A stretch of 64,000 bases of DNA from Patescibacteria group bacterium (lineage in GTDB: Bacteria; Patescibacteriota; Minisyncoccia; UBA6257; UBA9933), in the NCBI GenBank assembly GCA_038057075.1, contig JBBUDV010000006.1, positions 2,216 through 66,215 of the forward strand, in the 5' to 3' direction. Position 1 is the first letter of the stretch. Each line of letters starts with the position of its first letter. Positions 1,840-49,220 of the stretch are shown one piece after another. Under the pieces are notes generated by a model, which was given only the letters and a program-made list of their open reading frames with translations, was not told where the DNA came from and made no database searches. The position numbers were made by a program, and so were the translations under genes.

Positions 1840-3084
1840 ATGGCTGATAAACTCCAAAAAATAAAAGTAGAAGAAGAACTTAAGCGCGGAGCAGAGGTCT
1901 CAATTATTAGTCTTGTTGATTCATTGATTGAAAACGGCTATCATAGCCGCGCTTCGGATATTCATATAGATCCCGAAGAAAAACGGGTAAGGGTAAGATT
2001 AAGAATAGACGGCATTTTAAATGATGCGTTTATTCTACCTAAAGACATTCAATCCGAGGTTATAACGAGAATTAAGGTGCTTTCCGGACTTAGAACCGAT
2101 GAGCATCAAGCGGCTCAAGACGGCCGTTTTAGAACCGAAATTGAAGGCGGCGGGCCTATTGATCTTCGTGTCTCCATAGCTCCCACTTATTACGGCGAAA
2201 ATGCGGTAATGCGCCTTCTTATGGAAAAAGAAGAAAAATTTACTTTGGAAACATTGGGATACAACGAAAGAGACAGAGGAATAATAATGAAAGCCATTAA
2301 AAATCCTTACGGGATGATTCTGGCAACCGGCCCCACCGGTTCCGGAAAAACAACCACGCTTTACACGATTCTGAAAATTTTAAACACCAAAGAGGTCTCA
2401 ATAATTACGATTGAAGACCCCATAGAATATTCCCTTGAAGGCATTGACCAGATTCAGGCTAATACCAGAACCGGACTGACTTTTGCCACGGGTTTGCGTT
2501 CCATTTTGCGGCAAGACCCCAATATAATTATGGTCGGAGAAATTAGAGACGAAGAAACCGCGAGAATAGCCGTGAATGCGGCTTTGACCGGACATCTTTT
2601 GCTTTCAACTCTGCATACGAACGACGCCCCCACTACCCTGCCTCGTTTACTTGATATGCAGATTGAACCGTTTTTGATTGCTTCCACGGTTAATATCGCC
2701 ATCGGACAACGTTTAGTAAGAAAAATTTGCGAGAATTGCAAAGTTAACAAAGCCATTTCCACGGATGAGTTAAAAACATTATCCGAGTCCGTATCAACTG
2801 AAATTCTTTCTAAATATGAAAAAATCACGAAAAGCAAAAATTTTTCCAAAGGAAGCGGCTGTGAAAAATGTAATGACACCGGTTATCAGGGAAGAATCGG
2901 AATTTATGAAGTTTTGGAAGTTGACGATGATATAAGAAAGGCGGTTATCAGAAAAGCGGATGCCGGCGAAATCAGGGATATCGCCATAAAAAATGGAATG
3001 ACTACAATGATAGGAGACGGATTTAAAAAGGCCTCGGAAGGAATAACAACCATTGAGGAAATATTAAGAGTTATACATGAATAA
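1840..3084 (+). CDS. pilB: Type IV pilus / type II secretion assembly ATPase (PilB/GspE family), short form
   Basis: Walker A GPTGSGKTTTL, Asp/His boxes, and the C-terminal CxxC...CxxC zinc motif of GspE ATPases. Confidence 0.9.
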   Translation: MADKLQKIKVEEELKRGAEVSIISLVDSLIENGYHSRASDIHIDPEEKRVRVRLRIDGILNDAFILPKDIQSEVITRIKVLSGLRTDEHQAAQDGRFRTEIEGGGPIDLRVSIAPTYYGENAVMRLLMEKEEKFTLETLGYNERDRGIIMKAIKNPYGMILATGPTGSGKTTTLYTILKILNTKEVSIITIEDPIEYSLEGIDQIQANTRTGLTFATGLRSILRQDPNIIMVGEIRDEETARIAVNAALTGHLLLSTLHTNDAPTTLPRLLDMQIEPFLIASTVNIAIGQRLVRKICENCKVNKAISTDELKTLSESVSTEILSKYEKITKSKNFSKGSGCEKCNDTGYQGRIGIYEVLEVDDDIRKAVIRKADAGEIRDIAIKNGMTTMIGDGFKKASEGITTIEEILRVIHE

Positions 3085-3126
3085 ATAACCAACAACTAAT
3101 GACTAATAAAAATTGTAAGTTAATTT

Positions 3127-4188: not shown

Positions 4189-4624
4189 AAAACTTAGACA
4201 AAAGGGGCTGACACTGATAGAAATATTGATAACGACAACGATTATTGCGGTGATTTTCTCGCTTGGCCTTGTTTTTGGGATAGATTTTTACAGAAACTAC
4301 GCGTTTCATTCCGAAAGAGACGTAATAGTGAGTATTTTGGAAAAAGCCAGAAGTCGGGCCTTAAACAATATCAATCAGGAAGCGCATGGCGTTTATTTTT
4401 CAGGCGCGAATCACGTTATTTTTCAAGGGAATTCTTATGCCGCAAGAAATTCTTTATTTGATTTAATTATTCCAAAATCTTACTCGGCGATTTTAAGCGG
4501 ATTAAATGAAGTCGTTTTTAGCCAACTATCCGGAGAATCCAACGCGTCGGGAACGATTACTATCAGCGAAGACGGCCGGATTTCAGATATTTCAATAAAT
4601 AATGAAGGACGAATTAACTGGTAA
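4178..4624 (+). CDS. Prepilin-type N-terminal cleavage/methylation domain protein (pseudopilin/minor pilin)
   Basis: Class III leader MLNKKLRQKG|LTLIEIL with Glu at +5. The start is chosen at M8 of the ORF-track ORF (4157), which otherwise overlaps pilC by 32 nt. Confidence 0.7.
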   Translation: MLNKKLRQKGLTLIEILITTTIIAVIFSLGLVFGIDFYRNYAFHSERDVIVSILEKARSRALNNINQEAHGVYFSGANHVIFQGNSYAARNSLFDLIIPKSYSAILSGLNEVVFSQLSGESNASGTITISEDGRISDISINNEGRINW

Positions 4625-4760
4625 TCCCTCACCCTTCAAATACCGAAAACCCGAACATTTTACTTAAAAAACAAAGATTTAAAAATAAATGTTGATTTTA
4701 ATTTTGAAACGCAGAACTTGTAAAAGGTTTTATAAAATGCCGTATTTGAAGGGTGAGGGA
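4625..4760. mobile_element. IR-D family element copy 1 (18-bp terminal inverted repeats around ~100 bp AT-rich core)
   Basis: tccctcacccttcaaata (4625-4642) and tatttgaagggtgaggga (4743-4760). The left arm starts right after the upstream pilin stop codon. The right arm encodes YLKGEG of the next gene's prepilin leader, and that gene's ATG (4737) lies inside the element. Confidence 0.55.
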
Positions 4761-6107
4761 GGGCAAAGTATGGTGGAAATTTTGGTTGCTTTGACGATTT
4801 TCGTTTTAACCATCACGGCGGTTATTTTTCTTTCATCAGGAGGTCAATCGGTTTCAATTGATACCGAACTTAATAATCAAACAATTTACAAAGCCAAGGA
4901 GCAATTGGAAAACGCCCGGGCAACGGCAAAAAATAATTTTAGTTCTTTAGTTTCCGCTTCAAGCGCGGATAACGGATTTTTAAAAGAACTTATTGTGGAA
5001 AACCTCGGCGCTTATGAAAAAAAAGTTACAAGCAAAGTAAGTTGGCAAATAACGCCTTCGCGGACTCTTAAAACTGAACTTGCGACTATTATTTCCGATT
5101 GGAAAGGCGCAGTTGCGGTTGGCGGAGACACCGGCGGCGGCGGAATTTCCGGCGATTGGAAAAACCCCAGAACTTTAGGTTCTATTGATTTGGGTCCGGG
5201 AAATTCGGCAACCGGATTGGACGTTATTAATAAAATCGTCTATTTGTCAGCCGAGGCGTCTGACTCTAAAAAGCCGGATTTTTACATCGTTGATGCCACC
5301 GATGGAGAACATCCTTTTATTAAATCCAGTCTTAATACCGGCCCGGGCTTAAAAGCGTTGGACGTTGCCGGACAATACGCTTATCTGGCTAATAATAATG
5401 GAAACGCTCAATTACAAATTGTCAACGTAAGCGATCTTAATAATCCAATTTTGATTAAATCATATAAATTGCCGAATGTTTCTGGCGATGATGGAATCGC
5501 TCTAAGTATTTTTTACGTTGACTCAAAAATTTATCTTGGCATGAAAAAAATTGATGGTCCGGAATTTAATATTATTGATGTTTCTAATCCGAATAATCCA
5601 GTTTTGCTTGGCTCATATGAAATTAATGATAATGTTAATGATATTTATATAAACAGCAATCGCGCCTATCTGGCAACTGATTTAGGAAATGCAGGATTGA
5701 TTATTTTAGATGTTTCTAATTCGGCAAGCGTCAATCTTTTAGGACAAGCTTACTCTACGGATACTAATAGTGTTTTTAGTAATAATCCTTCGCTAACTTT
5801 TTTGAATCCGGGACAGGAATTTCGTATTGCCGACACCACCAATCCCAATTCAATTATTGATATAGGGTCAATCAATGTCGGCGATATAATCAATGATATA
5901 ACAAGCCGCGATTATTTGGCGTTTCTGGCAACTTCAAACAGCAACCGCAATTTCCAGATCGTTAATGTTTCTGATTCCGCTAATCCAACTTTATGGAGTT
6001 TTTTCAAGTTTCCTCAGGTGGCAACCGGCATAGATTTTGAAGATAATATCGTTTACGTTTCCATAAGAAGTAATGACGCGTTAAGAATCATAACGTCTTC
6101 TCTATAA
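4737..6107 (+). CDS. Pilin-like protein with prepilin leader fused to an LVIVD-repeat beta-propeller
   Basis: Leader MPYLKGEGG|QSMVEILVALTIFVL (Glu +5) followed by more than 6 LVIVD-type repeats (IVDATDG..., LQIVNVSDLNNP..., FNIIDVSNPNNP..., LIILDVSNSASV..., FQIVNVSDSANP...). The true start (M17 of the track ORF) lies inside the IR-D element. Confidence 0.6.
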   Translation: MPYLKGEGGQSMVEILVALTIFVLTITAVIFLSSGGQSVSIDTELNNQTIYKAKEQLENARATAKNNFSSLVSASSADNGFLKELIVENLGAYEKKVTSKVSWQITPSRTLKTELATIISDWKGAVAVGGDTGGGGISGDWKNPRTLGSIDLGPGNSATGLDVINKIVYLSAEASDSKKPDFYIVDATDGEHPFIKSSLNTGPGLKALDVAGQYAYLANNNGNAQLQIVNVSDLNNPILIKSYKLPNVSGDDGIALSIFYVDSKIYLGMKKIDGPEFNIIDVSNPNNPVLLGSYEINDNVNDIYINSNRAYLATDLGNAGLIILDVSNSASVNLLGQAYSTDTNSVFSNNPSLTFLNPGQEFRIADTTNPNSIIDIGSINVGDIINDITSRDYLAFLATSNSNRNFQIVNVSDSANPTLWSFFKFPQVATGIDFEDNIVYVSIRSNDALRIITSSL

Positions 6108-10303: not shown

Positions 10304-10310
10304 AATTCAA

Positions 10311-10400
10311 TTACATTTGGCAGCGAGACCGCAAAAAAAACTTAGTTTTATTTGCGGCGAGCGAACCAAATGAAAAAAATGTTACGCTCCGTAACATTTA
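10311..10400. repeat. Repeat family A copy 1 (~90 bp, two-hairpin intergenic element)
   Basis: ttacatttggcagcgagaccgcaaa...tttgcggcgagcgaaccaaatgaaaaaaatgttacgctccgtaacattt. Lies 8 nt upstream of the DMT gene start. Confidence 0.8.
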
Positions 10401-10425
10401 TTATACCATTATCGCCATTACGCTA

Positions 10426-11685: not shown

Positions 11686-11686
11686 A

Positions 11687-12235
11687 TCAATTGATTTTTA
11701 ATAGTTCAACTTCAAAAACAAGCGTGGCGCCGGGCGGTATCGCTCCTGGAACGCCTCTTTCGCCATATCCCAATTCGGACGGAATAGTCAATTTGCGTTT
11801 TTCCCCGACTTTCATGCCCAACAATCCCTGTTCCCATCCTTGGATTACTTGTCCCGCGCCGAGAACAAAAGAAAACGGCTGTCCCCTGTCAATGGAAGAA
11901 TCAAATTTTTCCCCGTCTGTTAATGTACCAATGTAATGGGCAGTAATCTTATCGCCATTTTTGGCGCCTTCACCCTCGCCTTGCTTTAAAATTTCTACAT
12001 TTACCCCGTTAGAAATAATTTGTTTTATATTATTACCTTCGAGATTATTATTGTTGTTTGTATTTGAATTTCTAACGGGGTTTACCATAAGTTTGTTTTG
12101 ATTATTTTCGACTTTTTCAGAGTTAAAATCAATTTTCTTGCTGAAATAATAACCGCCTACAAATACGGCTATTACCAGAATCGCGGTTAAAAATAAATTT
12201 AAAAAATTTTTATTATTCATATAATTTATTGCCAT
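11687..12235 (-). CDS. FKBP-type peptidyl-prolyl cis-trans isomerase, membrane-anchored
   Basis: C-terminal FKBP domain ([15 protein letters not shown]...[20 protein letters not shown]...[11 protein letters not shown]). The N-rich linker carries the IR-C element in frame. Confidence 0.85.
12000..12086. mobile_element. IR-C family element inserted in frame in the FKBP gene
   Basis: Arms tttaccccgttagaaat / atttctaacggggttta flank 52 bp of AT-rich DNA. The element is 87 bp (29 codons) and encodes the low-complexity linker [28 protein letters not shown]. Confidence 0.55.
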
Positions 12236-12935: not shown

Positions 12936-13757
12936 TTATGCAATAATTTTGACAAATCTCCACTTTTTATACTGATCTTTGTAAAATATCCATTTTTTAT
13001 ATTTTAATTGCTTTAAAATTTTCCCGATTAATGGTTTTTGAAATGAGTCAAATTCCATCCATATTTGACAGGTTGGTTTAATATATTGAACCGTTTGTTT
13101 TAAGAATTTTTTAATTATTTTAAGTCCGTCTTTTCCCGAGAATAATGCCTTTTTTGGTTCGTATTTTAAAACCTCCTTCTGAACCCTGTTTTTCCGTTTT
13201 AGAGCGACATACGGCGGATTTGCCAAAATAAAATCGTATTTATCTTTCAATAAATTTAAAGAGTGAACGGCTGTATCAATTATATTTTTACCGCTCGGGT
13301 TAACCCGAGCGGTAAAAATATCTGCCCGTATCACGCGATAACGAGATTTGTTGATTCTATTTATTTTCAAATTTAATTTTATCTGCTTTATCAAATTAGA
13401 ATCAATTTCATAAAAATCTACTTTTGAATTTTTTACATTTTTCAGGACAGAAATTCCCACACAGCCGGAACCGGCGAAAACATCCGCTATCTTTAAAGAT
13501 AGCGGCTTAGCATTCACGGAATAATCCAAAATTTTCGCAATTACTTTTTCAACCCAAAATTCCGTTTCCGGACGTGGAATCAACGGCTTAAAAGAAAGGT
13601 CTATTTCACAGTTTAAAAACGGTTTCCATCCTACGATATAATCAACCGGCTCGCCTTTTTTCAACCGTTTTATGTCATTTTCAATTTCCGGTCGGAGTTT
13701 GCCGCCATATTTATCTTTCAAAATCCAACCGATTTCTTTATAAAAATTTTTGGACAT
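12936..13757 (-). CDS. prmC: Release factor glutamine N5-methyltransferase PrmC/HemK
   Basis: SAM motif DVFAGSGCVGISV and the NPPY catalytic motif FILANPPYV. Confidence 0.8.
   Translation of the reverse strand: MSKNFYKEIGWILKDKYGGKLRPEIENDIKRLKKGEPVDYIVGWKPFLNCEIDLSFKPLIPRPETEFWVEKVIAKILDYSVNAKPLSLKIADVFAGSGCVGISVLKNVKNSKVDFYEIDSNLIKQIKLNLKINRINKSRYRVIRADIFTARVNPSGKNIIDTAVHSLNLLKDKYDFILANPPYVALKRKNRVQKEVLKYEPKKALFSGKDGLKIIKKFLKQTVQYIKPTCQIWMEFDSFQKPLIGKILKQLKYKKWIFYKDQYKKWRFVKIIA
13283..13320. mobile_element. Palindrome-B (38-bp perfect palindrome) inside the prmC coding sequence
   Basis: tatttttaccgctcgggttaacccgagcggtaaaaata encodes IFTARVNPSGKNI between the DIF and NPPY motifs, where PrmC normally has a much shorter spacer. 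An identical copy lies at 17863-17900. Confidence 0.6.
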
Positions 13758-17286: not shown

Positions 17287-17321
17287 TTCATCGCCTCCTT
17301 TTATCCGATTCTTACATTTGG

Positions 17322-17404
17322 CAGCGAGTCCACAAAGGGAACTTTAATTTCATTTGCGGCGAGCGAACCAAATGAAAAAATGTTACGCTCTGTGGCATTT
17401 TTTA
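17322..17404. repeat. Repeat family A copy 2
   Basis: ttacatttggcagcgagtccacaaagg...tttgcggcgagcgaaccaaatgaaaaaatgttacgctctgtggcatttttt. Confidence 0.8.
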
Positions 17405-17547
17405 TTGAATTTTAATTATTGGAACTAAAAATAGAATATCACTTAAATACTATTTTGTAAAGTGTTTTACTTTTTGCGCAAAAAGTTCGGCGCAAAAAAA
17501 GGCCCCGACAAAATGTCAGAGCCAAAGCGTTAAAACCGAAGTCTGGA

Positions 17548-17862: not shown

Positions 17863-17900
17863 TATTTTTACCGCTCGGGTTAACCCGAGCGGTAAAAATA
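17863..17900. repeat. Palindrome-B copy 2, intergenic, terminator-like
   Basis: Identical 38-bp palindrome tatttttaccgctcgggttaacccgagcggtaaaaata, 6 nt after the CAP gene stop. Confidence 0.7.
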
Positions 17901-22732: not shown

Positions 22733-23158
22733 CTATTTCAAATTAACTATATAGGTTTTGATAAATTTTTCTATTGCCAATACAGTTTCGGTTTTTAATT
22801 TTGGGTTTGATTCCGCCACCCATTTGGCAAAATTATAAAGTTCTTGATTATCAACTTCCAACCATTTTTTGTTTTTGTGTAAAAAATAAAAAAGTGTCAT
22901 CATGGCAATCCGTTTATTTCCATTTTTAAACGGATGGTTTTTAACCATTAAATAAAATAATACCGACACTTTCCCAATAAATCCTTTATATAACGGCTTG
23001 CCGCCGAAAGTTTGGAATGGCGCGATTAAACAACTTTCTAAAATATTAGGATAACGCGAACTAAAATCAGGAATTGGCTCATCCCATGCCATCATTTCTT
23101 TTGCCAACCAATAAGCGACATATTCAACTTGAATGATTGAAATTATTTTTATTTTCAT
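22733..23158 (-). CDS. Doc/Fic-family toxin, copy 1
   Basis: Doc-type motif HPFKNGNKR. Confidence 0.7.
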   Translation of the reverse strand: MKIKIISIIQVEYVAYWLAKEMMAWDEPIPDFSSRYPNILESCLIAPFQTFGGKPLYKGFIGKVSVLFYLMVKNHPFKNGNKRIAMMTLFYFLHKNKKWLEVDNQELYNFAKWVAESNPKLKTETVLAIEKFIKTYIVNLK

Positions 23159-26056: not shown

Positions 26057-26479
26057 TTAAGATTTTACTATGTATGTTTTGATAAATTTTTCTATTGCCA
26101 ATACAGTTTCGGTTTTTAATTTTGGGTTTGATTCCGCCACCCATTTGGCAAAATTATAAAGTTCTTGATTATCAACTTCCAACCATTTTTTGTTTTTGTG
26201 TAAAAAATAAAAAAGTGTCATCATGGCAATCCGTTTATTTCCATTTTTAAACGGATGGTTTTTAACCATTAAATAAAATAATACCGACACTTTCCCAATA
26301 AATCCTTTATATAACGGCTTGCCGCCGAAAGTTTGGAATGGCGCGATTAAACAACTTTCTAAAATATTAGGATAACGCGAACTAAAATCAGGAATTGGCT
26401 CATCCCATGCCATCATTTCTTTTGCCAACCAATAAGCGACATATTCAACTTGAATGATTGAAATTATTTTTATTTTCAT
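26057..26479 (-). CDS. Doc/Fic-family toxin, copy 2
   Basis: Identical over most of its length to copy 1; the C-terminus differs (KTYIVKS). Confidence 0.7.
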   Translation of the reverse strand: MKIKIISIIQVEYVAYWLAKEMMAWDEPIPDFSSRYPNILESCLIAPFQTFGGKPLYKGFIGKVSVLFYLMVKNHPFKNGNKRIAMMTLFYFLHKNKKWLEVDNQELYNFAKWVAESNPKLKTETVLAIEKFIKTYIVKS

Positions 26480-28816: not shown

Positions 28817-28873
28817 TTACATTTGACAGCGAGTCCGTAAATAAAAAAAATGTCACGTTTCGTGACATTTTTT
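28817..28873. repeat. Repeat family A copy 3 (internally deleted)
   Basis: ttacatttgacagcgagtccgtaaat...aaaaaatgtcacgtttcgtgacatttttt. Confidence 0.7.
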
Positions 28874-28880
28874 AAGATAA

Positions 28881-30527: not shown

Positions 30528-30609
30528 GACAAAATGATACGTTATTTACGTTATTTTGTCAAGATAATGTACTGGATGAATATATTAGTAACGCTATATA
30601 TGCACTAAA

Positions 30610-30876
30610 CCCCCGGCTTTTGTACAAAAACACGCGTCGTTTTTCCCAGCGTGAAAAGCGCGCTCGACCTCGTTCTCGCTCGTCCGAGACAATAGATTCT
30701 GAAGAATGTCTCGGAGGCGCAAAAAGATTGGTTCCGCTATTTGGCGGATTTTTGCGCCGAGAGGCAAACTCCCGGCTCTCCGCTGGAGAGAGCCGAGGGG
30801 TGATTCTAAAGAACCTATTGTCTCGGACACCTTGCCCGCTCGAACTCCGTACGGTTTCCTTTACAAAAGCCGGAGG
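30610..30876 (+). ncRNA. Candidate structured ncRNA of unknown class (strand tentative)
   Basis: Locally GC-rich. Two nested perfect long-range helices: 30613-30624 with 30862-30873 (12 bp) and 30682-30695 with 30815-30828 (14 bp), plus several internal hairpins. The overlapping ORFs on both strands look non-coding. Confidence 0.4.
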
Positions 30877-30890
30877 TTAGCAGATAAAAT

Positions 30891-31993: not shown

Positions 31994-32023
31994 ATGTTTT
32001 TAAGATTACTTGCCGCTATTTAT

Positions 32024-32113
32024 TACATTTGGCAGCGAGTCCACAAAGAAAACTTTGTTTTATTTGTGGCGAGAGAACCAAATGAAAAAATGTTACGTTT
32101 CGTGACATTTTTT
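32024..32113. repeat. Repeat family A copy 4
   Basis: ttacatttggcagcgagtccacaaagaaaactttgttttatttgtggcgagagaaccaaatgaaaaaatgttacgtttcgtgacatttttt, between the dnaJ stop and the next gene's start. Confidence 0.8.
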
Positions 32114-33254
32114 ATTCTTCTTCTTTTTCCAAATCCTCTAAAAGTTTTTTAGCCGCGCCGCTGATTTTTTTAGGAGTTTTAACTTTAAGTTTAAGCAATA
32201 AATCGCCTCGGCCACTCCGGTTGAAATGAGGCATTCCTTCGCCGGAAATTCTGATAAACCGGTTAATCTCAAAATCCGCCGGTATTTTCACTTTTATTTT
32301 TCCGCCCGAAATAACGGGAATCTCAAATTCTCTGACGCCGGCAAAATAAAGTAAAAGCGCGATTAAACTGATTTCCTTTTCAATTATCAAATCGTCACTT
32401 TGTCTGGAAAAAATTTTATGAAACTTAATCCTGATAATAATAAATAAATCCCCTTCTTCCATTCCTCTTTCTCCGGCTTCTCCGCCGCCTTTGATTTTTA
32501 TTATCTGATTGTCGGACACGCCGGGCAGAATTTTGATTGTCGTTTCCTTTTCTCCTTTCACGGCTCCCCTGCCTTTGCAAGAATCGCAAATTTTATTGGG
32601 CGTCTGACCCGAGCCAAAACAGCCGGAACACATTTTAACCTGCGTAAAACTGCCGAAAAAAGTGTTCCGATTTTCTTTTATTTCGCCTCTGCCCCCGCAA
32701 ACCGAACACGTGGAAAATCCGGATTTCGGTTCATGGCCCAAGCCGCTGCATTTAACGCATCTGACATCAACTTTATATTTGATTTTTTCCTCCGTGCCGG
32801 AAAACGCCTCTTCCAAACTTATTTCTTGAATCAATTGGATATCGGAACCGTGCTTATAAGTCCGCCTTTGCTCCTTTACGCCCAAACCTTCAAAAAACGC
32901 GTCAAAAATATCACCGATATCCGCGGCTCCTCCTCCGCCAAAATCAAAATTAAAACCAGAAGACCCGCCTTGAGCGCCGCCGAAGGGCCCGCCTTGACCG
33001 AAATCCCAGCCGCCGAATGGACTGCCTTGAGCGCCGCCGGAAGACTGTTCCTCAAAGACCCTGCCGAATTGGTCGTACTGATTCCGTTTTTGAGGATTGG
33101 ATAAAATCTGATACGCTTCGCTTAATTCTTTAAATTTTTTCTCGTCGCCGCCCGGTTTGTCAGGATGATATTTATGCGCCAGCTTACGATACGCTTTTTT
33201 TATGTCGTCTTGCGTGGCGTTTTTTTCAATACCTAAAATTTTGTAATAATTCAT
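32112..33254 (-). CDS. dnaJ: Chaperone DnaJ
   Basis: J domain with HPD; G/F-rich region; four CxxCxGxG zinc-finger repeats. Confidence 0.9.
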
Positions 33255-43734: not shown

Positions 43735-45771
43735 TTATCTGATGTCCGCTCCAAATTCATTTCTCAAAACTGCTTCTATCTTTACCATTTCATTATTAAC
43801 TTCTTTATCCGTCAAAGTTTTGTCCGGCGCCTGAAAAACAATTCTGAAAGTCAAACTCCTTTTATCGTTGATTTTTTCCCCCTCGTATTCGTCCATCAAA
43901 TCAACGTCGTCAATATGTTTCAAATCGGCAGTTTGTATTGATTGAATTATATTCCCCACTTTAGCCGTTTTATCAACCAAAATTGAAATGTCGCGCATCA
44001 TTGAAGGATATTTTGAGAGAGGCAAATACTCATGTTCGCCTTCAACAAGTTTCAGCAACCCTTCCAAATCAAACTCCGCAACCGCGATTTTCCAATCAGC
44101 CAAATCCCCCGATGATTTTAACTTGCCCAAATATCCGATTTGTTTTTCTTTGGATTCAATCTTTAAAATCTCGCCCTGTTTCAAATATCCCTCCGTAAAA
44201 TCCTTTATCCAATCGGAATCACTTATTTCCAAAAAATCAAAATCAACCAAACCGACTCTTTTAAATAATTCCGCGAGAACGCCTTTTAATTCAAATAATT
44301 TTTCTTCCGTCTTTGAAGCCAAAACTATTCCCGCGGAAAAAAGTTCGTTTATCTTGTTTGATTCCCCTGATTTGAAAAATACTTTCCCCAATTCAAAAAT
44401 CCGGATTTCGCCAAAAAATCTGCCGTTATCATCAATGTTTTTAATAAGATTGACTGCCAGATTGGGCCTTAAATACTCATATTCCTTGCTTATCGGATTT
44501 TCCAATTCAACCAGACGATAATTTTTGGCCTTAAAAAAATTATTTGCGGGCGTAAAAGAATGATTATAAACTTCGTTTAATCCCAAACCGGCCAAAACTT
44601 TTCTTATCTTGTCTTTTAAAACAATTTTATCCTCAAAACCGGAAGAAACAATATGGAGGCGCGGCGCTCTGGCTTTTAATTTGTTATACCCGTAAAGACG
44701 GACAACTTCTTCAAATAAATCCTCCGGATTTTTAATATCAGTTCTTACGGCGGGCGCCTTGACCAAAAAATCGGAATTGGCCAATGTCTTAATTATTTTA
44801 AAATCCAAAAGTTCCAAATATTTTCGGATTGTTTTTAAACCAAAATCAGCGCCGATAAATTTGTTGAATTTTTCAACTTCAAATTTCAAAATTTTCGCCG
44901 GCTGTTTTTTGGAATAAACGTCTATTAAAACTCCTTCCGCGGCTCCGCATAATTCTTTAAGCAGTTCCCCTGCTCTGATAAGCCCATTTTTGGCGAGTTC
45001 AGGACTTATCCCTCTGGAAAATCTCATTGAGGCATCGGTTATAAGCCCTAATTTTCTTGAACCTGAATAGATATTGGCGGAATCAAAATTGGCCGATTCC
45101 ACCACAATTCTTTTTGTATTCATTCCGACTTCAGCCAGCTTGCCGCCTTTAATTCCCGCGATCGCCAACGATTTTTTCTCGTCAGCTATCACTAAAATAT
45201 CTTTATTTAGATTAATATGCTGATTGTCCAAAGTCGTGATTTTCTCCCCGCCTTTCGCCTTTCGCGCGACAATTTTCTTTATCCCCGACTTCTTATCTTT
45301 AACGCCTAATTTATCGTAGTCAAACGCGTGTATGGGCTGGCCAGTTTCAAGCATCGCATAATTCATAATATCCACTATCGTATTAATAGGCCGCATTCCG
45401 CAATTAATTAAAATGTTTTTCATCCACACGGGCGTCTTTTTCATCTTGCCCAAATCAAAATATTGAGCCATATATCTGGAACACAATTTTTTGTCTTTAA
45501 TCTCAACTCTGAAATTCGCTTTTGCCCTGGTTTTATGTTTCTGAATTTCCGATAAATTGTATTTGAATTTCCTGCCTAAAGCCGCGGAAATTTCCCGCGC
45601 AAGCCCGATATGGCCGGCGGCGTCATACCTGTTTGGCGGAAGTTTTATATCAATCGCATTGCCCTTAAAACTATCAATTTCAAAAGCGTAAAGAGCCAAC
45701 TTTTCAGAAAGCTCTTTTTTACCTTTTATCTGCGGAACTAATTTTTTTAATAATTTATAGCTGAATTTCAT
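43735..45771 (-). CDS. pheT: Phenylalanine--tRNA ligase beta subunit (short form)
   Basis: B3/B4 and B5 domains, C-terminal FDX-ACB-like region; sits downstream of pheS. Confidence 0.85.
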   Translation of the reverse strand: MKFSYKLLKKLVPQIKGKKELSEKLALYAFEIDSFKGNAIDIKLPPNRYDAAGHIGLAREISAALGRKFKYNLSEIQKHKTRAKANFRVEIKDKKLCSRYMAQYFDLGKMKKTPVWMKNILINCGMRPINTIVDIMNYAMLETGQPIHAFDYDKLGVKDKKSGIKKIVARKAKGGEKITTLDNQHINLNKDILVIADEKKSLAIAGIKGGKLAEVGMNTKRIVVESANFDSANIYSGSRKLGLITDASMRFSRGISPELAKNGLIRAGELLKELCGAAEGVLIDVYSKKQPAKILKFEVEKFNKFIGADFGLKTIRKYLELLDFKIIKTLANSDFLVKAPAVRTDIKNPEDLFEEVVRLYGYNKLKARAPRLHIVSSGFEDKIVLKDKIRKVLAGLGLNEVYNHSFTPANNFFKAKNYRLVELENPISKEYEYLRPNLAVNLIKNIDDNGRFFGEIRIFELGKVFFKSGESNKINELFSAGIVLASKTEEKLFELKGVLAELFKRVGLVDFDFLEISDSDWIKDFTEGYLKQGEILKIESKEKQIGYLGKLKSSGDLADWKIAVAEFDLEGLLKLVEGEHEYLPLSKYPSMMRDISILVDKTAKVGNIIQSIQTADLKHIDDVDLMDEYEGEKINDKRSLTFRIVFQAPDKTLTDKEVNNEMVKIEAVLRNEFGADIR

Positions 45772-45899
45772 CCCTCACCCTTCAAATATTTATTTTATAA
45801 ATTTATTAAAATTTATAAAATGGAATAATTGAAGTTTTAATTTATTATCATTTTTTACCCCCTGCCTTTTAAATTTTTTTATCTTTGAAGGGTGAGGGA
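45771..45899. mobile_element. IR-D family element copy 2, filling the pheS-pheT intergenic gap
   Basis: tccctcacccttcaaata (45771-45788) and tctttgaagggtgaggga (45882-45899), 17 of 18 complementary. The arms abut the pheT start codon and the pheS stop codon. Confidence 0.55.
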
Positions 45900-46895
45900 T
45901 TAAAATTGTTTGATAAATCTTAAATCACCCGAATAAAACAATCTGATGTCCGGAATTTTGTATTTAATCATCGCCAAACGGTCTATGCCCATCCCAAAGG
46001 CAAACCCCTGCCATTCGTTCGAATTGTATCTTACCGCGTCAAAAACGTTTCTATGCACCATGCCCGCTCCCATCACTTCCAGCCAACCGCCTTTATCCAG
46101 TTTAATATCAACCTCAACCCCCGGTTCAACGAATGGAAAATAACTCGGCCTAAACCGAAATTCTATTTTTTGCCCCTTAAAAAACTTTTTGAAAAATTCT
46201 TCAATGACAAATTTGAAATTTGCCAGCGAAACATCTTTGCCAACCATTAAACCCTCCAACTGATAAAAATTTATTTCATGGGAAGCATCAGTCGCTTCAT
46301 ATCTAAAAACCCTTCCCGGCGCGATTATCTGAAAAGGCGGATTATACTTTTCCATATATCTTATTTGAACCGGGCTGGTGTGAGTTCTTAAAAGCAGTCG
46401 GTTTTTGGTTTTCGCCTGCTTAAGCCAAAAAGTATCCCACATTTCCCGCGACGGATGATTTTGCGGAATATTTAACGCGTCAAAATTATATTGCTCATTC
46501 TCAACTTCCGGACCTTCAACAATGGAAAAATTCATTGAAGAAAATATCTGATTCATTTCATCTTCAACTTTCGCCAATATATGAATATGGCCTGATTCAA
46601 TTTTTTTAGCCGGCTTGGTGATATCCAAAACCGGCGCCATTAATGAACGCCTGTAATTAAGGTCGTCAATTTTTTCCTGAACCAAATCCTGAATTTCCTT
46701 TCTTATGGCATTTGCCTTGGCGCCGATTTCGCGGCGCTCTTCAACGGATAAATTCTTGAGCGAGCCCAAAATTTCGGTTAATTCGCTTTTCCTGCCCAGA
46801 TACTTAACGCGAATTTTTCCAAAATCCTTAAAATTTCTGATTTCGTCAATTTCTTTTATAAATTCCTGCCGGATTTTTTGAAGCTTTTCAATCAT
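45900..46895 (-). CDS. pheS: Phenylalanine--tRNA ligase alpha subunit
   Basis: Class II motifs 1-3 (FRYEATDASHE...GMGIDRLAM). Confidence 0.9.
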   Translation of the reverse strand: MIEKLQKIRQEFIKEIDEIRNFKDFGKIRVKYLGRKSELTEILGSLKNLSVEERREIGAKANAIRKEIQDLVQEKIDDLNYRRSLMAPVLDITKPAKKIESGHIHILAKVEDEMNQIFSSMNFSIVEGPEVENEQYNFDALNIPQNHPSREMWDTFWLKQAKTKNRLLLRTHTSPVQIRYMEKYNPPFQIIAPGRVFRYEATDASHEINFYQLEGLMVGKDVSLANFKFVIEEFFKKFFKGQKIEFRFRPSYFPFVEPGVEVDIKLDKGGWLEVMGAGMVHRNVFDAVRYNSNEWQGFAFGMGIDRLAMIKYKIPDIRLFYSGDLRFIKQF

Positions 46896-48231: not shown

Positions 48232-49194
48232 TCAAAATTTCAATGCCTCCAAGGCCTTTATCCTTTCTTCAACCGGCGGATGAGTCATAAAAAGCTTGGC
48301 AATGCCGGAAAGTTTAGCCCCCTTAAAGGGGTTGTCCACCCATAGATGCGCGGTGGCGTTATTGGCTATTTTCATCGGAATCGCGCTTGCGGAAATTTTT
48401 TCCAAAGCCGAAGCAAGACCTGAAGGATTTTTGGTCAAAACCGCGCCCGAAGCATCGGCCAAAAATTCCCTTTTTCTTGATATCGCCAATTGGATAAGCA
48501 TGGCCGAAATCGGCGCGACAATCGCCAAAATAATTCCGACAACGGCAAAAATTTGATTGCCTCCCCTTTCATTATCTCTATTTCTAAAGCCGCCGAAAAA
48601 CGCGCTTCTTAAAAAGATATCCGAAACAATTGAAATAAAACCGACCAAAACCACGACAATTGTTGAAATTAGAATGTCGCGATTGGCAATATGAGACAAT
48701 TCATGCGCAAGCACGCCTTCTAATTCTTTTGCGTTCAATCTTTGAAGTAATCCCGTTGTAACCGCAATCGCGGCGTGTTTTGAATTTCTTCCGGTTGCGA
48801 AAGCGTTAGGTTGAGCTTCATCAATAATATAAATTTTAGGCGCGGGCAAAACGGCTTTTTTCGCCAATTCCCCTACAATTTTAAAAAGTTCGGGATAATT
48901 TTTCTTTTCAACCGGTTTGGCTTTTGTCATCGCCAAAACGATTTTATCCGAATACCAAAAAGAAATAACATTCATCAGCAAACTGAAAACAACCGCAAAA
49001 TATAAAATTGACGGATTGCCGTAAATTCTTGAAAAAAGCCAGCCAATTCCGATGACGCCGATTAAAAAAGCCGCAATTAAAATAAACGTCCTTCTAATAT
49101 TGGAATTTTTACATTTGGCAGCGAGACCGCAAAGAAAACTTTGTTTTATTTGCGGCGAGGGAACTAAATGAAAAAATGTTACGCGTTGTGACAT
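48232..49194 (-). CDS. htpX: HtpX-like M48 zinc metalloprotease (true start uncertain)
   Basis: HELSHIANRD HExxH motif and TM segments. The first ~31 codons of the track ORF are read from repeat-A copy 5. Confidence 0.75.
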   Translation of the reverse strand: MSQRVTFFHLVPSPQIKQSFLCGLAAKCKNSNIRRTFILIAAFLIGVIGIGWLFSRIYGNPSILYFAVVFSLLMNVISFWYSDKIVLAMTKAKPVEKKNYPELFKIVGELAKKAVLPAPKIYIIDEAQPNAFATGRNSKHAAIAVTTGLLQRLNAKELEGVLAHELSHIANRDILISTIVVVLVGFISIVSDIFLRSAFFGGFRNRDNERGGNQIFAVVGIILAIVAPISAMLIQLAISRKREFLADASGAVLTKNPSGLASALEKISASAIPMKIANNATAHLWVDNPFKGAKLSGIAKLFMTHPPVEERIKALEALKF

Positions 49195-49199
49195 TTTTT
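49109..49199. repeat. Repeat family A copy 5
   Basis: ttacatttggcagcgagaccgcaaagaaaactttgttttatttgcggcgagggaactaaatgaaaaaatgttacgcgttgtgacatttttt; overlaps the annotated htpX start. Confidence 0.8.
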
Positions 49200-49220
49200 A
49201 TACGAAATGAAATTCATTAT

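Follow-up and report, generated by a model that had tools for sequence, protein, structure and literature searches.

The element at the pheS-pheT junction

Patescibacteria (the candidate phyla radiation, CPR) account for a large share of bacterial diversity and have for the most part not been cultured; their genomes are tiny, few of their regulators are known, and their expression signals are poorly understood. In one such genome, an inverted repeat lies between pheS and pheT, which raises the question of whether it serves this operon alone or belongs to a dispersed family, and what it does there. In the stretch analyzed here (the window, 64,000 nt, to which all coordinates refer), the repeat bounds a 129-nt element on the minus strand (45771 to 45899) that spans the whole gap from the pheS stop codon to the pheT start codon.

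Pfam assignments of the flanking open reading frames (ORFs) bear out the label of pheS-pheT junction given in the original prediction and place the operon on the minus strand. The upstream gene in the ORF list, pheS (45900 to 46895, minus strand; 331 aa), matches tRNA-synt_2d (6e-99) and Phe_tRNA-synt_N, and pheT (43735 to 45771, minus strand; 678 aa) matches B3_4, B5, tRNA_synthFbeta, and FDX-ACB. The TAA stop codon of pheS (45900 to 45902) abuts the element without a gap, and the first base of the 5′ arm lies directly 3′ of it. In mRNA sense, this arm, located by the inverted-repeat and arm searches, reads UCCCUCACCCUUCAAAGAU (45881 to 45899, minus strand); it is the anti-Shine-Dalgarno-like strand, and its 19-mer is identical in nearly all members of the family described below. 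It is followed on the same strand by an interior that is rich in A, variable, and not significantly structured, delimited by sequence and family alignment (45822 to 45880), and by an inner hairpin with a perfect 13-bp stem and a 4-nt loop, seen both as an inverted repeat and in the MFE structure (45792 to 45821). Two bases further downstream, the 3′ arm, AUAUUUGAAGGGUGAGGGA in mRNA sense (45771 to 45789, minus strand), was recognized from the sequence and the inverted repeat. It contains the Shine-Dalgarno (SD)-like GGGUGA (45775 to 45780), three bases ahead of the AUG, and it overlaps the pheT AUG by its final A. The pheT ATG (45769 to 45771) thus directly abuts GGGTGAGGG, and this start position is kept in orthologues.

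The inverted arms are 19 to 24 nt long, depending on how the repeat is delimited. The 24-nt repeat pairs 45766 to 45789 with 45881 to 45904 (92% complementary, spacing of 91 nt), and the 18-nt arms originally proposed (45771 to 45788 and 45882 to 45899) are indeed complementary at 17 of 18 positions, as read straight from the sequence. Folded in mRNA sense, the element reaches −45.7 kcal/mol (z = −7.0), and none of 200 shuffled sequences was equally stable; the arm-arm stem is a predicted duplex of about 20 bp and −31.6 kcal/mol. The short reading frame noted earlier in the interior, ATG-GAA-TAA (45822 to 45830), is present, but on the plus strand only, antisense to the operon. It is not conserved, being missing from the closest subfamily members in the alignment, and was given no weight.

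A dispersed family with fixed position and polarity

The arm pair recurs at the pilin locus of the window, as had been predicted, and does so above shuffle expectation. This sister copy (4625 to 4760, plus strand) is a 19-nt inverted repeat with 100% complementarity and a predicted arm duplex of −34.5 kcal/mol. Its 5′ arm (4625 to 4643) directly follows the TAA (4622 to 4624) of a prepilin-type gene; its 3′ arm occupies 4742 to 4760, and the ATG of the next gene is at 4770, behind a GGGAGGG spacer of its own. Allowing one mismatch at most, the 18-mer arm has four sites in the window (4623 to 4640 and 45769 to 45786 on the plus strand; 4745 to 4762 and 45884 to 45901 on the minus strand), compared with 0.04 expected from shuffles, and four occurrences were reached in 0 of 100 shuffles. 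The 9-mer core CCCTCACCC is restricted, within the window, to those same four arm sites. Likeness between the two copies ends at the arms: their interiors are unrelated, and that of the pilin-locus copy clusters with no other interior at a local score of ≥40. Membership of the family rests on arms, architecture, and position, not on homology over the full length.

In wider searches, 11 Patescibacteria genomes of the Parcubacteria group yielded 21 loci with the arm pair, and at least 119 contigs from groundwater metagenomes carry it as well. A collection of 145 sequences (1.04 Mb) yielded 153 paired copies, 120 to 174 nt from core to core, in which the arms enclose about 100 variable bases, for an element length of about 125 to 175 nt. 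The arms read TCCCTCACCCTTCAAAGAT and ATCTTTGAAGGGTGAGGGA across the family, a near-invariance that is partly due to the exact-match searches used for collecting copies, and the arm sequence is not self-complementary. There are 12 compensated double changes in the arms, although ascertainment works against them, and a base pair between the A ahead of the 5′ arm and the U of the AUG is present in 50 of 53 distinct arm pairs; arm pairing is, as far as such sequence comparison can indicate, under selection. The interior has neither tandem structure nor a conserved ORF, its lengths differ by non-multiples of 3, and its sense strand is 44% A. Lineage-specific subfamilies are present, and some copies hold nested mini-hairpins with the same core.

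The position of the element is tightly fixed at its 3′ end. An ATG follows directly in 104 of 109 nonredundant copies, a long ORF opens at 101 of these 104, and start-codon offsets of 1 to 9 nt do not occur among the 109. At the 5′ end, the element is directly preceded by TAAT in 69 and by TGAT in 6 of the 109 copies, and an upstream ORF on the same strand ends within 3 nt of the element in 58 copies. Orientation is equally strict: the 286 pairs with similar interiors are co-oriented relative to the downstream gene, and no reverse-oriented similar interior was found, apart from one mis-oriented duplicate (the apparent reverse copy L105 was rejected, being locus L066 on the other strand). A random sample of 20 downstream genes included those for L2, S19, L29, L17, S5, RpoD, GreA, ClpP, SecF, and one aminoacyl-tRNA synthetase; the element is tolerated ahead of essential, highly expressed genes.

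A second hairpin just 5′ of the 3′ arm is conserved in position across the family, while its stem sequences differ between subfamilies. In per-sequence folding, by which this hairpin was judged, 90 of 99 copies place it 0 to 5 nt ahead of the SD arm, and the median folding z score is −2.9 for the 3′-proximal 45 nt versus +0.26 for the 5′-proximal 45 nt, which served as the internal control. From the 3′ halves aligned with MAFFT, RNAalifold derived no consensus structure; this result is uninformative on the hairpin because the differing stems and loop lengths are out of register.

Turnover at orthologous junctions

In the nearest relatives, the element is absent from the orthologous pheS|pheT junction, and it is likewise absent from at least 11 other orthologous junctions with flanks of 70 to 96% identity, including L23|L2, L2|S19, and S13|S11. 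These other junctions hold TT, AT, AAAT, TTTTTT, GTTG, A, C, or unrelated spacers of 62 to 76 nt in its place. Since relatives have unrelated spacers at the same junctions, the element replaces the entire spacer, and by this comparison the pheS-pheT copy has apparently displaced an earlier spacer in this lineage. Together with the occurrence at many loci and in many contigs, the empty junctions support the original view that the element is dispersed rather than private to pheST. The opposition then drawn between a dispersed and a regulatory element does not hold, as the two are not alternatives: each copy should affect translation locally because, in the predicted fold, it buries the SD and the start codon of the gene behind it.

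Neither target-site duplications nor a larger relative of the element was found. The sole repeated flank, AT, is palindromic and part of the stem; arm pairs 300 to 2,500 nt apart, which might mark an autonomous parent, are absent from the 1.04 Mb (145 sequences), and the arm was not found in viral contigs. The arrangement TAAT|CCC...GGG|ATG in 69 of 109 copies had prompted a model of AT duplication, or of IS200/IS605-style insertion 3′ of TAAT into a TAATG overlap. This is insufficient, as none of the at least 11 empty sites is TAATG, and deleting the element does not regenerate the empty orthologous sites. An excision footprint would fit TAAT+T+ATG and TAAT+TTTTT+ATG but fails for TAA-AAAT-ATG, TAA-AT-ATG, and TAA-C-ATG and was also rejected. 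Spacer replacement without target duplication, combined with strict polarity, points to an insertion mechanism of an undescribed kind.

A putative ribosome-binding site and its proposed gating by the upstream gene

The anatomy suggests that the element is a polar, mobile intercistronic cassette that both supplies and hides a ribosome-binding site (RBS), tying the translation of pheT to termination on pheS. We give this interpretation, which leans on predicted structure, about an even chance of being correct. In vivo, the two arms of the pheST mRNA would pair into a stem closed at its foot by a pair between the final A of the pheS UAA and the U of the pheT AUG. The 3′ arm would be the pheT RBS, with GGGUGA, GGG, and AUG in order, and the 5′ arm its complement, so that in free mRNA the SD and AUG would be wholly paired and shut to new ribosomes. 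A ribosome at the pheS stop codon would cover and unwind the first 10 to 12 nt of the 5′ arm, the very bases that hold the SD and AUG. Initiation on pheT could then be by a new 30S subunit or by the same ribosome, for which the stop and start codons would be adjacent at the stem foot. The element would thus act as a strong RBS usable only when the upstream gene is translated, that is, as translational coupling by RNA unfolding.

Several calculations are consistent with this scheme. Pairing of the 3′ arm with the 16S tail GAUCACCUCCUUUCU is predicted at −10.1 kcal/mol (median for random 19-mers, −2.0), which makes an SD function of the arm plausible. Many other genes of the window have no SD and carry TATAAT about 10 nt ahead of the ATG. 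Re-calling starts by the best SD over-picked internal TTG codons, and its use here is confined to the energy of the arm, the background of random 19-mers, and the starts that are visibly of leaderless type. In the free RNA, the in silico probability of being unpaired is ≤0.02 for the SD and AUG, except for the G that ends the AUG (0.10), and the downstream SD and start codon pair in silico with the segment that a terminating upstream ribosome would occupy. With the stop codon plus 12 nt forced single-stranded, GGGAUG becomes unpaired (0.92 to 0.96 in silico). With the 5′ arm forced open, the GGUGAG core is still mostly paired elsewhere (unpaired probability of 0.08 to 0.13 in silico); opening the 5′ arm is predicted to clearly free only the AUG and the adjacent GGG.

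Coupling is excluded as a role for the roughly 40% of copies in which no co-directional ORF ends at the 5′ arm, some of which lie behind a tRNA gene or a divergent gene. The model also gives the conserved inner hairpin no part, which counts against it. A perfect 20-bp RNA duplex is also a classic RNase III substrate, and cleavage by this enzyme might open the stem in place of unwinding.

Alternative explanations

RNase III is central to a reading that is compatible with coupling, in which the element is a processing module (“operon punctuation”). The stem would be cut as in rRNA precursors, separating the cistrons and freeing the SD; the inner hairpin would remain on the downstream mRNA as a protective 5′ cap, and the 5′ arm would form a 3′ barrier on the upstream one. 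The placement of the inner hairpin 0 to 5 nt 5′ of the SD arm (90 of 99 copies), the perfect predicted duplexes of about 20 bp (−31.6 and −34.5 kcal/mol), the long-range stem around about 100 nt, and the A-rich, unstructured interior all agree with such processing. RNase III cuts the Correia elements of Neisseria when they are folded in mRNA, and it exposes the RBS of E. coli adhE by cleavage. After a double-strand cut, however, the halves of the 20-bp duplex must still dissociate, and we regard this reading as rather improbable. The copies without a co-directional upstream gene, behind a tRNA or beside divergent genes, would be accommodated by a portable cassette of promoter and 5′ untranslated region (UTR), whose AT-rich interior starts a transcript near the inner hairpin with the SD free; the 5′ arm would merely silence read-through transcripts. 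A hairpin with an SD behind it is what a stable 5′ UTR typically looks like. Promoter-like hexamer pairs at the two window copies are nonetheless at chance level (4 versus 2.4 ± 1.5 and 1 versus 0.9 ± 1.1), −10-like hexamers do not peak at any position and are equally frequent on the antisense strand, and the subfamilies share no sequence block at a set distance from the ATG, all of which make a promoter cassette very unlikely.

A selfish miniature element (MITE), mobilized in trans by a transposase encoded elsewhere, would have no role in expression and would owe its position to target preference and purifying selection. The element is a small noncoding unit with perfect terminal inverted repeats, dispersed in many copies per genome and polymorphic for presence or absence at orthologous sites, and its lineage-specific subfamilies and the mini-hairpins with the same core nested in some copies would also be expected of a MITE. 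It lacks the direct target-site duplication, the AT on both sides being stem, and the empty sites are never the predicted TAATG. Spacers are replaced rather than interrupted, no copy is reversed, the 3′ end meets a start codon directly in 104 of 109 copies and never at an offset of 1 to 9 nt, the 1.04 Mb contain no autonomous parent with the arm pair 300 to 2,500 nt apart, and the sites lie ahead of ribosomal-protein, rpoD, and aminoacyl-tRNA synthetase genes. A purely selfish MITE is, in our judgment, unlikely. Control specific to pheST, by an attenuator, a T-box-like element, or a leader-type structure acting on pheT, is suggested by the location within the pheST operon, and E. coli pheST is under leader attenuator control. 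It is refuted by dispersal and by absence from orthologous junctions: the same arms stand ahead of unrelated genes in many genomes, and the nearest relatives have no such element between pheS and pheT. There are, moreover, no terminator-like sites and no Rfam match even at an E value of ≤10, and a chance inverted repeat is excluded by the shuffles, leaving this pair of explanations with a negligible probability.

Comparison with known elements

Searches of Rfam 15 at the gathering threshold found six tRNAs only in the window; the element region gave noise only at an E value of ≤10 (8.7 to 17 bits), and 15 related loci gave no matches. A G+C-rich hairpin with a T run, as in an intrinsic terminator or attenuator, is absent from both window copies. 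No description of the element was found in the literature on Patescibacteria, CPR, or Parcubacteria repeats, and the 12-mer matches from a literature search with the arm sequence were primers and eukaryotic sequences. A one-directional repeat family of Patescibacteria has apparently been undescribed so far.

Correia/NEMIS (Neisseria), ERIC/IRU (enterobacteria), and RUP and BOX (pneumococcus) are bacterial MITEs that are cotranscribed in operons. Correia, ERIC, RUP, and BOX elements have tens of copies per genome, form long mRNA hairpins affecting processing or stability, insert in either orientation, duplicate their target sites (TA in the case of Correia), and break up spacers at varying distances from the neighboring genes. 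The element resembles them in being small, noncoding, bounded by inverted repeats, located between genes, and variable between relatives. Unlike them, it is polar, lacks a duplication, and overwrites the full stop-to-start spacer; in about 95% of copies it ends at the start codon, and one of its arms would serve as the RBS. MIRU (mycobacterial interspersed repetitive units) are 46- to 101-bp direct tandem units with small ORFs bridging two genes. Said to have been described by Supply and colleagues in 1997, they are reportedly repeats dispersed between the cistrons of operons and oriented with transcription, ending at the flanking stop and start codons and read as preserving translational coupling. 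The element is likewise intercistronic, oriented with transcription, and bounded by stop and start codons (ATG in 104 of 109 copies; TAAT or TGAT in 75 of 109). It is, however, a single inverted-repeat unit without a conserved ORF that would work, if at all, through a long-range stem, whereas MIRU are not known to be inverted repeats or to carry a sequestered SD.

REP, REPIN, and BIME sequences are mobilized by RAYT transposases; REPs are imperfect palindromes of about 20 to 35 nt with a conserved GTAG-type head, and a REPIN consists of two units. REPs located near a stop codon can influence translation of the preceding gene, and doublets form long hairpins. Like REP and REPIN, the element is extragenic and often lies directly after stop codons in operons; unlike those of REP, its arms are nonpalindromic and lie about 100 nt apart, with the 3′ arm directly against the start codon of the next gene. 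Integron attC sites are imperfect inverted repeats of 57 to 141 nt between co-directional ORFs, with core sites RYYYAAC...GTTRRRY, in cassette arrays next to intI/attI. The element shares with them conserved ends, a variable middle, and a fixed orientation relative to ORFs. An attC identity was rejected, as both the RYYYAAC and GTTRRRY core sites and the cassette-array context are absent; the cores are instead CCCTCACCC and GGGTGAGGG, and the neighbors are housekeeping operons (pheST, ribosomal proteins) and rpoD.

A review (PMC12548453) covers coupling by RNA unfolding in E. coli rpmI-rplT (+52 nt), MS2 coat-lysis/replicase, and f1 genes VII-IX; in the cases described there, the downstream RBS is locked in structure and translation of the upstream gene opens it. 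The element is similar in that the other strand of its stem lies, in silico, where the upstream ribosome terminates. Those cases are unique, locus specific, and evolved in place, whereas the element is a repeated, exchangeable module of SD, anti-SD, and spacer that is found ahead of dozens of unrelated genes.

Possible significance of a proposed mobile ribosome-binding site

A broader proposal, which we hold to be less likely than not, is that such elements represent a new kind of mobile DNA carrying a translation-initiation region: start-anchored, polar RBS cassettes that overwrite entire spacers, spread by means other than classical cut-and-paste transposition, and are kept as gated RBSs. 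If so, they might spread by microhomology or template-switch copying between AT-rich ...AAATAA / ATGAAA... junctions or by an unknown targeted enzyme, and they would be retained as strong, upstream-gated RBSs for core operons in SD-poor, largely leaderless genomes. An RBS could then be carried and exchanged as a mobile module, and translational coupling would be enforced genome-wide, in modular form, for ribosomal-protein, aminoacyl-tRNA synthetase, sigma-factor, and secretion genes.

The very fast turnover of intergenic sequence, at flank identities of 90 to 96%, bears on comparative genomics. For gene calling, the arm marks the start codon, and a call at the first in-frame ATG within an element, such as that at 4689 in this window, is wrong.

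The pheS-pheT element and its sister copy

The genes flanking the element at 45771-45899 were identified with Pfam as pheS (ORF 45900-46895, minus strand) and pheT (ORF 43735-45771, minus strand), and the gap from the pheS stop to the pheT start is exactly the extent of the element. In mRNA sense, the order is pheS-UAA, UCCCUCACCCUUCAAAGAU, 91 nt, AUAUUUGAAGGGUGAGGG, and AUG-pheT. The original prediction described 18-nt arms that were complementary at 17 of 18 positions and recurred at the pilin locus, and both points are borne out by the sequence. Pairing extends over 24 nt (45766-45789 with 45881-45904; 92% complementary; separation, 91 nt), and the window contains four occurrences of the 18-mer, arranged in two inverted pairs. 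Chance likeness of the arms, which would have undermined the prediction, is countered by the shuffled controls (0.04 occurrences expected; none of 100 shuffles reached four), and the 9-mer core CCCTCACCC is restricted to the four arm sites within the window. The mRNA-sense strand has a predicted folding energy of -45.7 kcal/mol (z = -7.0); the predicted structure combines a long stem with an inner hairpin of 13 bp, which lies two bases 5' of the 3' arm. The interior ATG-GAA-TAA noted earlier is present, but it lies antisense and is absent from the copies most closely related to this one.

On the plus strand, the sister copy (4625-4760) directly follows the TAA stop of a prepilin-type gene and ends 9 nt upstream of an ATG (4770) of a gene for an LVIVD-repeat protein. 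A mechanical ORF list starts the latter gene at ATG 4689, within the element; the true start is likely ATG 4770, behind the 3' arm and a GGGAGGG Shine-Dalgarno (SD) sequence. Automatic annotation may similarly over-extend other genes behind such elements. The window matches a Hainich groundwater contig with 99.8% identity across 5.6 kb, while the next closest PheT proteins share only 57-65% identity, followed by those of “Candidatus Wolfebacteria” (~54%). The source is an uncultured member of the Patescibacteria (Parcubacteria group).

Family size and host range

When 185,579 species, each represented by a single genome, were searched for exact matches to the two 13-nt arm cores at 85-115 nt spacing, 21 loci were recovered from 11 genomes, every one belonging to Patescibacteria, consistent with the proposal that the element is dispersed. 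Jorgensenbacteria, Liptonbacteria, Brennerbacteria, and Minisyncoccia are among the hosts, which the NCBI taxonomy assigns to three candidate phyla of the Parcubacteria group. When metagenomes were scanned with a single 19-nt arm, at least 119 contigs matched, with groundwater predominating among the matches listed; eight or more copies lie on one contig of 635 kb. No arm was found in the viral contigs scanned. Because all copies were gathered through exact arm matches, both the apparent arm invariance and this host range are biased, lower-bound estimates.

The collected sequence (1.04 Mb, with host genomes represented by pieces of ≤15 kb around copies and ORF-based gene calls) contains 153 paired copies, with core-to-core distances of 120-174 nt and two of ~290 nt. 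The few unpaired arms lie at contig ends or have a partner with at least two mismatches. No arm pairs spaced 300-2500 nt apart were found in the 1.04 Mb, and thus no candidate autonomous parent was seen.

Position, polarity, and shared anatomy

After removal of duplicates by their flanks, 109 copies remained. An ATG immediately follows 104 of these and opens a long ORF in 101 cases; in the remaining copies the start is at least 10 nt distant, and offsets of 1-9 nt are absent. The upstream flank is TAAT in 69 copies and TGAT in six, and a co-directional ORF ends ≤3 nt away in 58, the others lying behind tRNA genes, divergent genes, or longer gaps. These flanks were not forced by the searches: the pattern used for genomes stopped within the arm, and that used for metagenomes stopped at the first base of the ATG. 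Interiors cluster into lineage-specific subfamilies. Among interior pairs aligned with a local score of ≥40, 286 are co-oriented relative to the downstream gene, and no reverse-oriented match between distinct loci was found in the same comparison. On the chromosome, the two copies in the window face in opposite directions, each along its own operon, so polarity tracks transcription and not replication. Core functions dominate 20 randomly chosen downstream genes, which encode ribosomal proteins (L2 [twice], S19, L29, L17, and S5), a class II aminoacyl-tRNA synthetase, RpoD, GreA, ClpP, SecF, RecO, and MraY-type and other glycosyltransferases.

The predicted outer stem comprises 20 bp: the 19-nt arms are lengthened by one pair in which an A, usually the last base of the stop codon, faces the U of AUG (in 50 of the 53 different arm pairs). 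Selection on arm pairing is shown by 12 compensated double substitutions (arm positions 9, 13, 16, 17, and 19), which were found despite searches demanding that one or both arms be canonical. The 5' half of the interior is A-rich and without predicted structure (first 45 nt, median z of +0.26), whereas the last 45 nt (median z of -2.9) hold a predicted inner hairpin with a median of 12 pairs; in 90 of 99 copies, this hairpin ends 0-5 nt upstream of the 3' arm. Its stems are wholly different across subfamilies (e.g., TTGTAAATTT/AAATTTACAA, TTTTTCATTT/AAATGAAAAA, CTTGCTATCA/TGATAGCAAG, and CGCTTC/GAAGCG). Some elements also contain nested mini-hairpins of 30-50 nt with the same core (CCCTCACCC, T/A loop, GGGTGAGGG), either directly after the 5' arm or replacing the inner hairpin (collected sequences L003, 2004-2035; L033, ~1118-1150; and L040, ~2575-2605); the core hairpin itself seems to be copyable or insertable.

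The 3' arm reads ...GAAGGGUGAGGG and is followed by AUG. Its GGGUGA has a predicted pairing energy of -10.1 kcal/mol with the universal 16S tail, versus a median of -2.0 kcal/mol for random 19-mers, and the spacing is equivalent to the canonical one, since three bases after GGUGA equal six after the GGAGG position. Many other window genes have no SD and carry TATAAT 9-11 nt upstream of the ATG (e.g., minus-strand ATGs at 46895 [pheS], 28212, 36675, and 12543), suggesting that leaderless or near-leaderless mRNAs are widespread in this genome. An SD-bearing leader is therefore unusual here.

Turnover at orthologous junctions

In the nearest relatives, the pheS-pheT junction is occupied by either a 43-nt spacer of unrelated sequence or an additional ORF of 129-134 aa. 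Comparison of occupied with orthologous junctions was informative at 11 or more sites, most of them with flanks 86-96% identical and a few with flanks 70-80% identical. Counterparts of TAA-[TCCC...GGG]-ATG were TAA-TT-ATG, TAA-AT-ATG, TAA-AAAT-ATG, TAA-TTTTTT-ATG, TAA-GTTG-ATG, TAA-A-ATG, and TAA-C-ATG, and these comparisons indicate that the unit takes the place of the entire intercistronic spacer. Models of AT duplication or of insertion 3' of TAAT were rejected, as the TAATG they require is absent from every empty site. Two of the compared pairs show a further difference in the occupied allele, in the final bases preceding the arm, where ...ATAA accompanies the element. A single junction, e.g., L2-S19 or S13-S11, can carry different interior subfamilies in different genomes.

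Spread could occur by copying between junctions via short AT-rich homologies (AAATAA gene ends and ATGAAA starts) or by targeted activity of another kind, and it is plausible that existing copies exchange interiors by way of their identical 20-bp arms. Other element-free junctions contain unrelated fillers of 62-76 nt with tandem heptamers just before the ATG, e.g., (ATGTTCC)x3 and (AAATGTT)n (L018, 1700-1762; L144, ~3033-3118; L040, ~4790-4875; and L109, ~11686-11771), which may be another intercistronic filler family.

Proposed function and alternatives

The element is most likely, in our moderately confident reading, an RNA-unfolding coupling device that ties pheT translation to pheS termination. 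In free mRNA, the predicted unpaired probability of the pheT SD and AUG is ≤0.02 (0.10 at the last base, G, of AUG) and a duplex energy of -31.6 kcal/mol is predicted for the arms, so that the start would be locked in the stem. The strand pairing with the SD and AUG starts at the first nucleotide past the pheS stop codon. A terminating ribosome has a footprint reaching ~12 nt past the A-site codon, and the RNA it covers is unwound; keeping the stop codon and 12 nt single-stranded in silico raises GGGAUG accessibility to 0.92-0.96. A ribosome terminating at the pheS stop would thus unwind the 5' arm and expose GGGAUG, with GGGUGA serving as the putative pheT SD, and the stem, by bringing the stop codon next to the start codon, would favor re-initiation by the same ribosome. 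Enforced 1:1 translation would be sensible for heterotetrameric PheST and for ribosomal-protein operons. Coupling by RNA unfolding has been reviewed, with examples including rpmI-rplT and MS2 (PMC12548453).

Processing of the 20-bp stem by RNase III agrees fully with the anatomy, is compatible with unfolding, and would give the inner hairpin a role in capping the 5' end of the downstream fragment; we rate it as rather unlikely. A purely selfish MITE is comparably improbable: it accounts for copy number and inverted repeats but leaves unexplained the absent duplication, strict polarity, exact abutment to the start codon, and spacer replacement. More doubtful still is an internal promoter, which would help to explain copies without a co-directional upstream gene but gains no support from consensus scans. 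A pheST-specific attenuator and a chance inverted repeat are both regarded as excluded.

No Rfam family matches the element, and literature searches found no such element described for Patescibacteria. It shares its general nature with the co-transcribed bacterial MITEs Correia, ERIC, and RUP, which, unlike it, have free orientation, target duplications, and variable position. MIRUs resemble it in their polar intercistronic position abutting stop and start codons; they differ in consisting of direct tandem units that contain bridging ORFs. The mechanism proposed here is that of locus-specific coupling hairpins, which differ in not being repeated modules. The element is filed here as a dispersed intergenic inverted-repeat element; it would deserve a separate category if insertion proves to be start-codon anchored and transposase independent.

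Other repeats in the window

A G+C-rich noncoding region of ~330 nt (30560-30890), between two minus-strand ORFs, contains nested long-range inverted repeats (30608-30624/30862-30878 and 30682-30707/30803-30828, the latter with 26-nt arms). It has no Rfam match, even at an E value of ≤0.1, and looks like a structured RNA gene. A second dispersed intergenic repeat of ~96 nt has four or five copies between co-directional genes (10308-10403, 17310-17405, 32020-32115, and 49106-49201; partial, 28845-28874). On the gene strand, it consists of a terminator-like hairpin (AAAAAATGTnACG...CGTnACATTTTTT) and then an imperfect hairpin of ~65 nt (CATTTGG...CCAAATG), with no meaningful match in Rfam. A perfect 40-nt palindrome (ATATTTTTACCGCTCGGGTT followed by AACCCGAGCGGTAAAAATAT) occurs twice, 4.6 kb apart (13282-13321 and 17863-17900). 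A 300-nt direct duplicate with 99% identity (22743-23042 and 26064-26363) spans most of two ORFs of 140-141 aa (22733-23158 and 26057-26479) and is a recent gene duplication.
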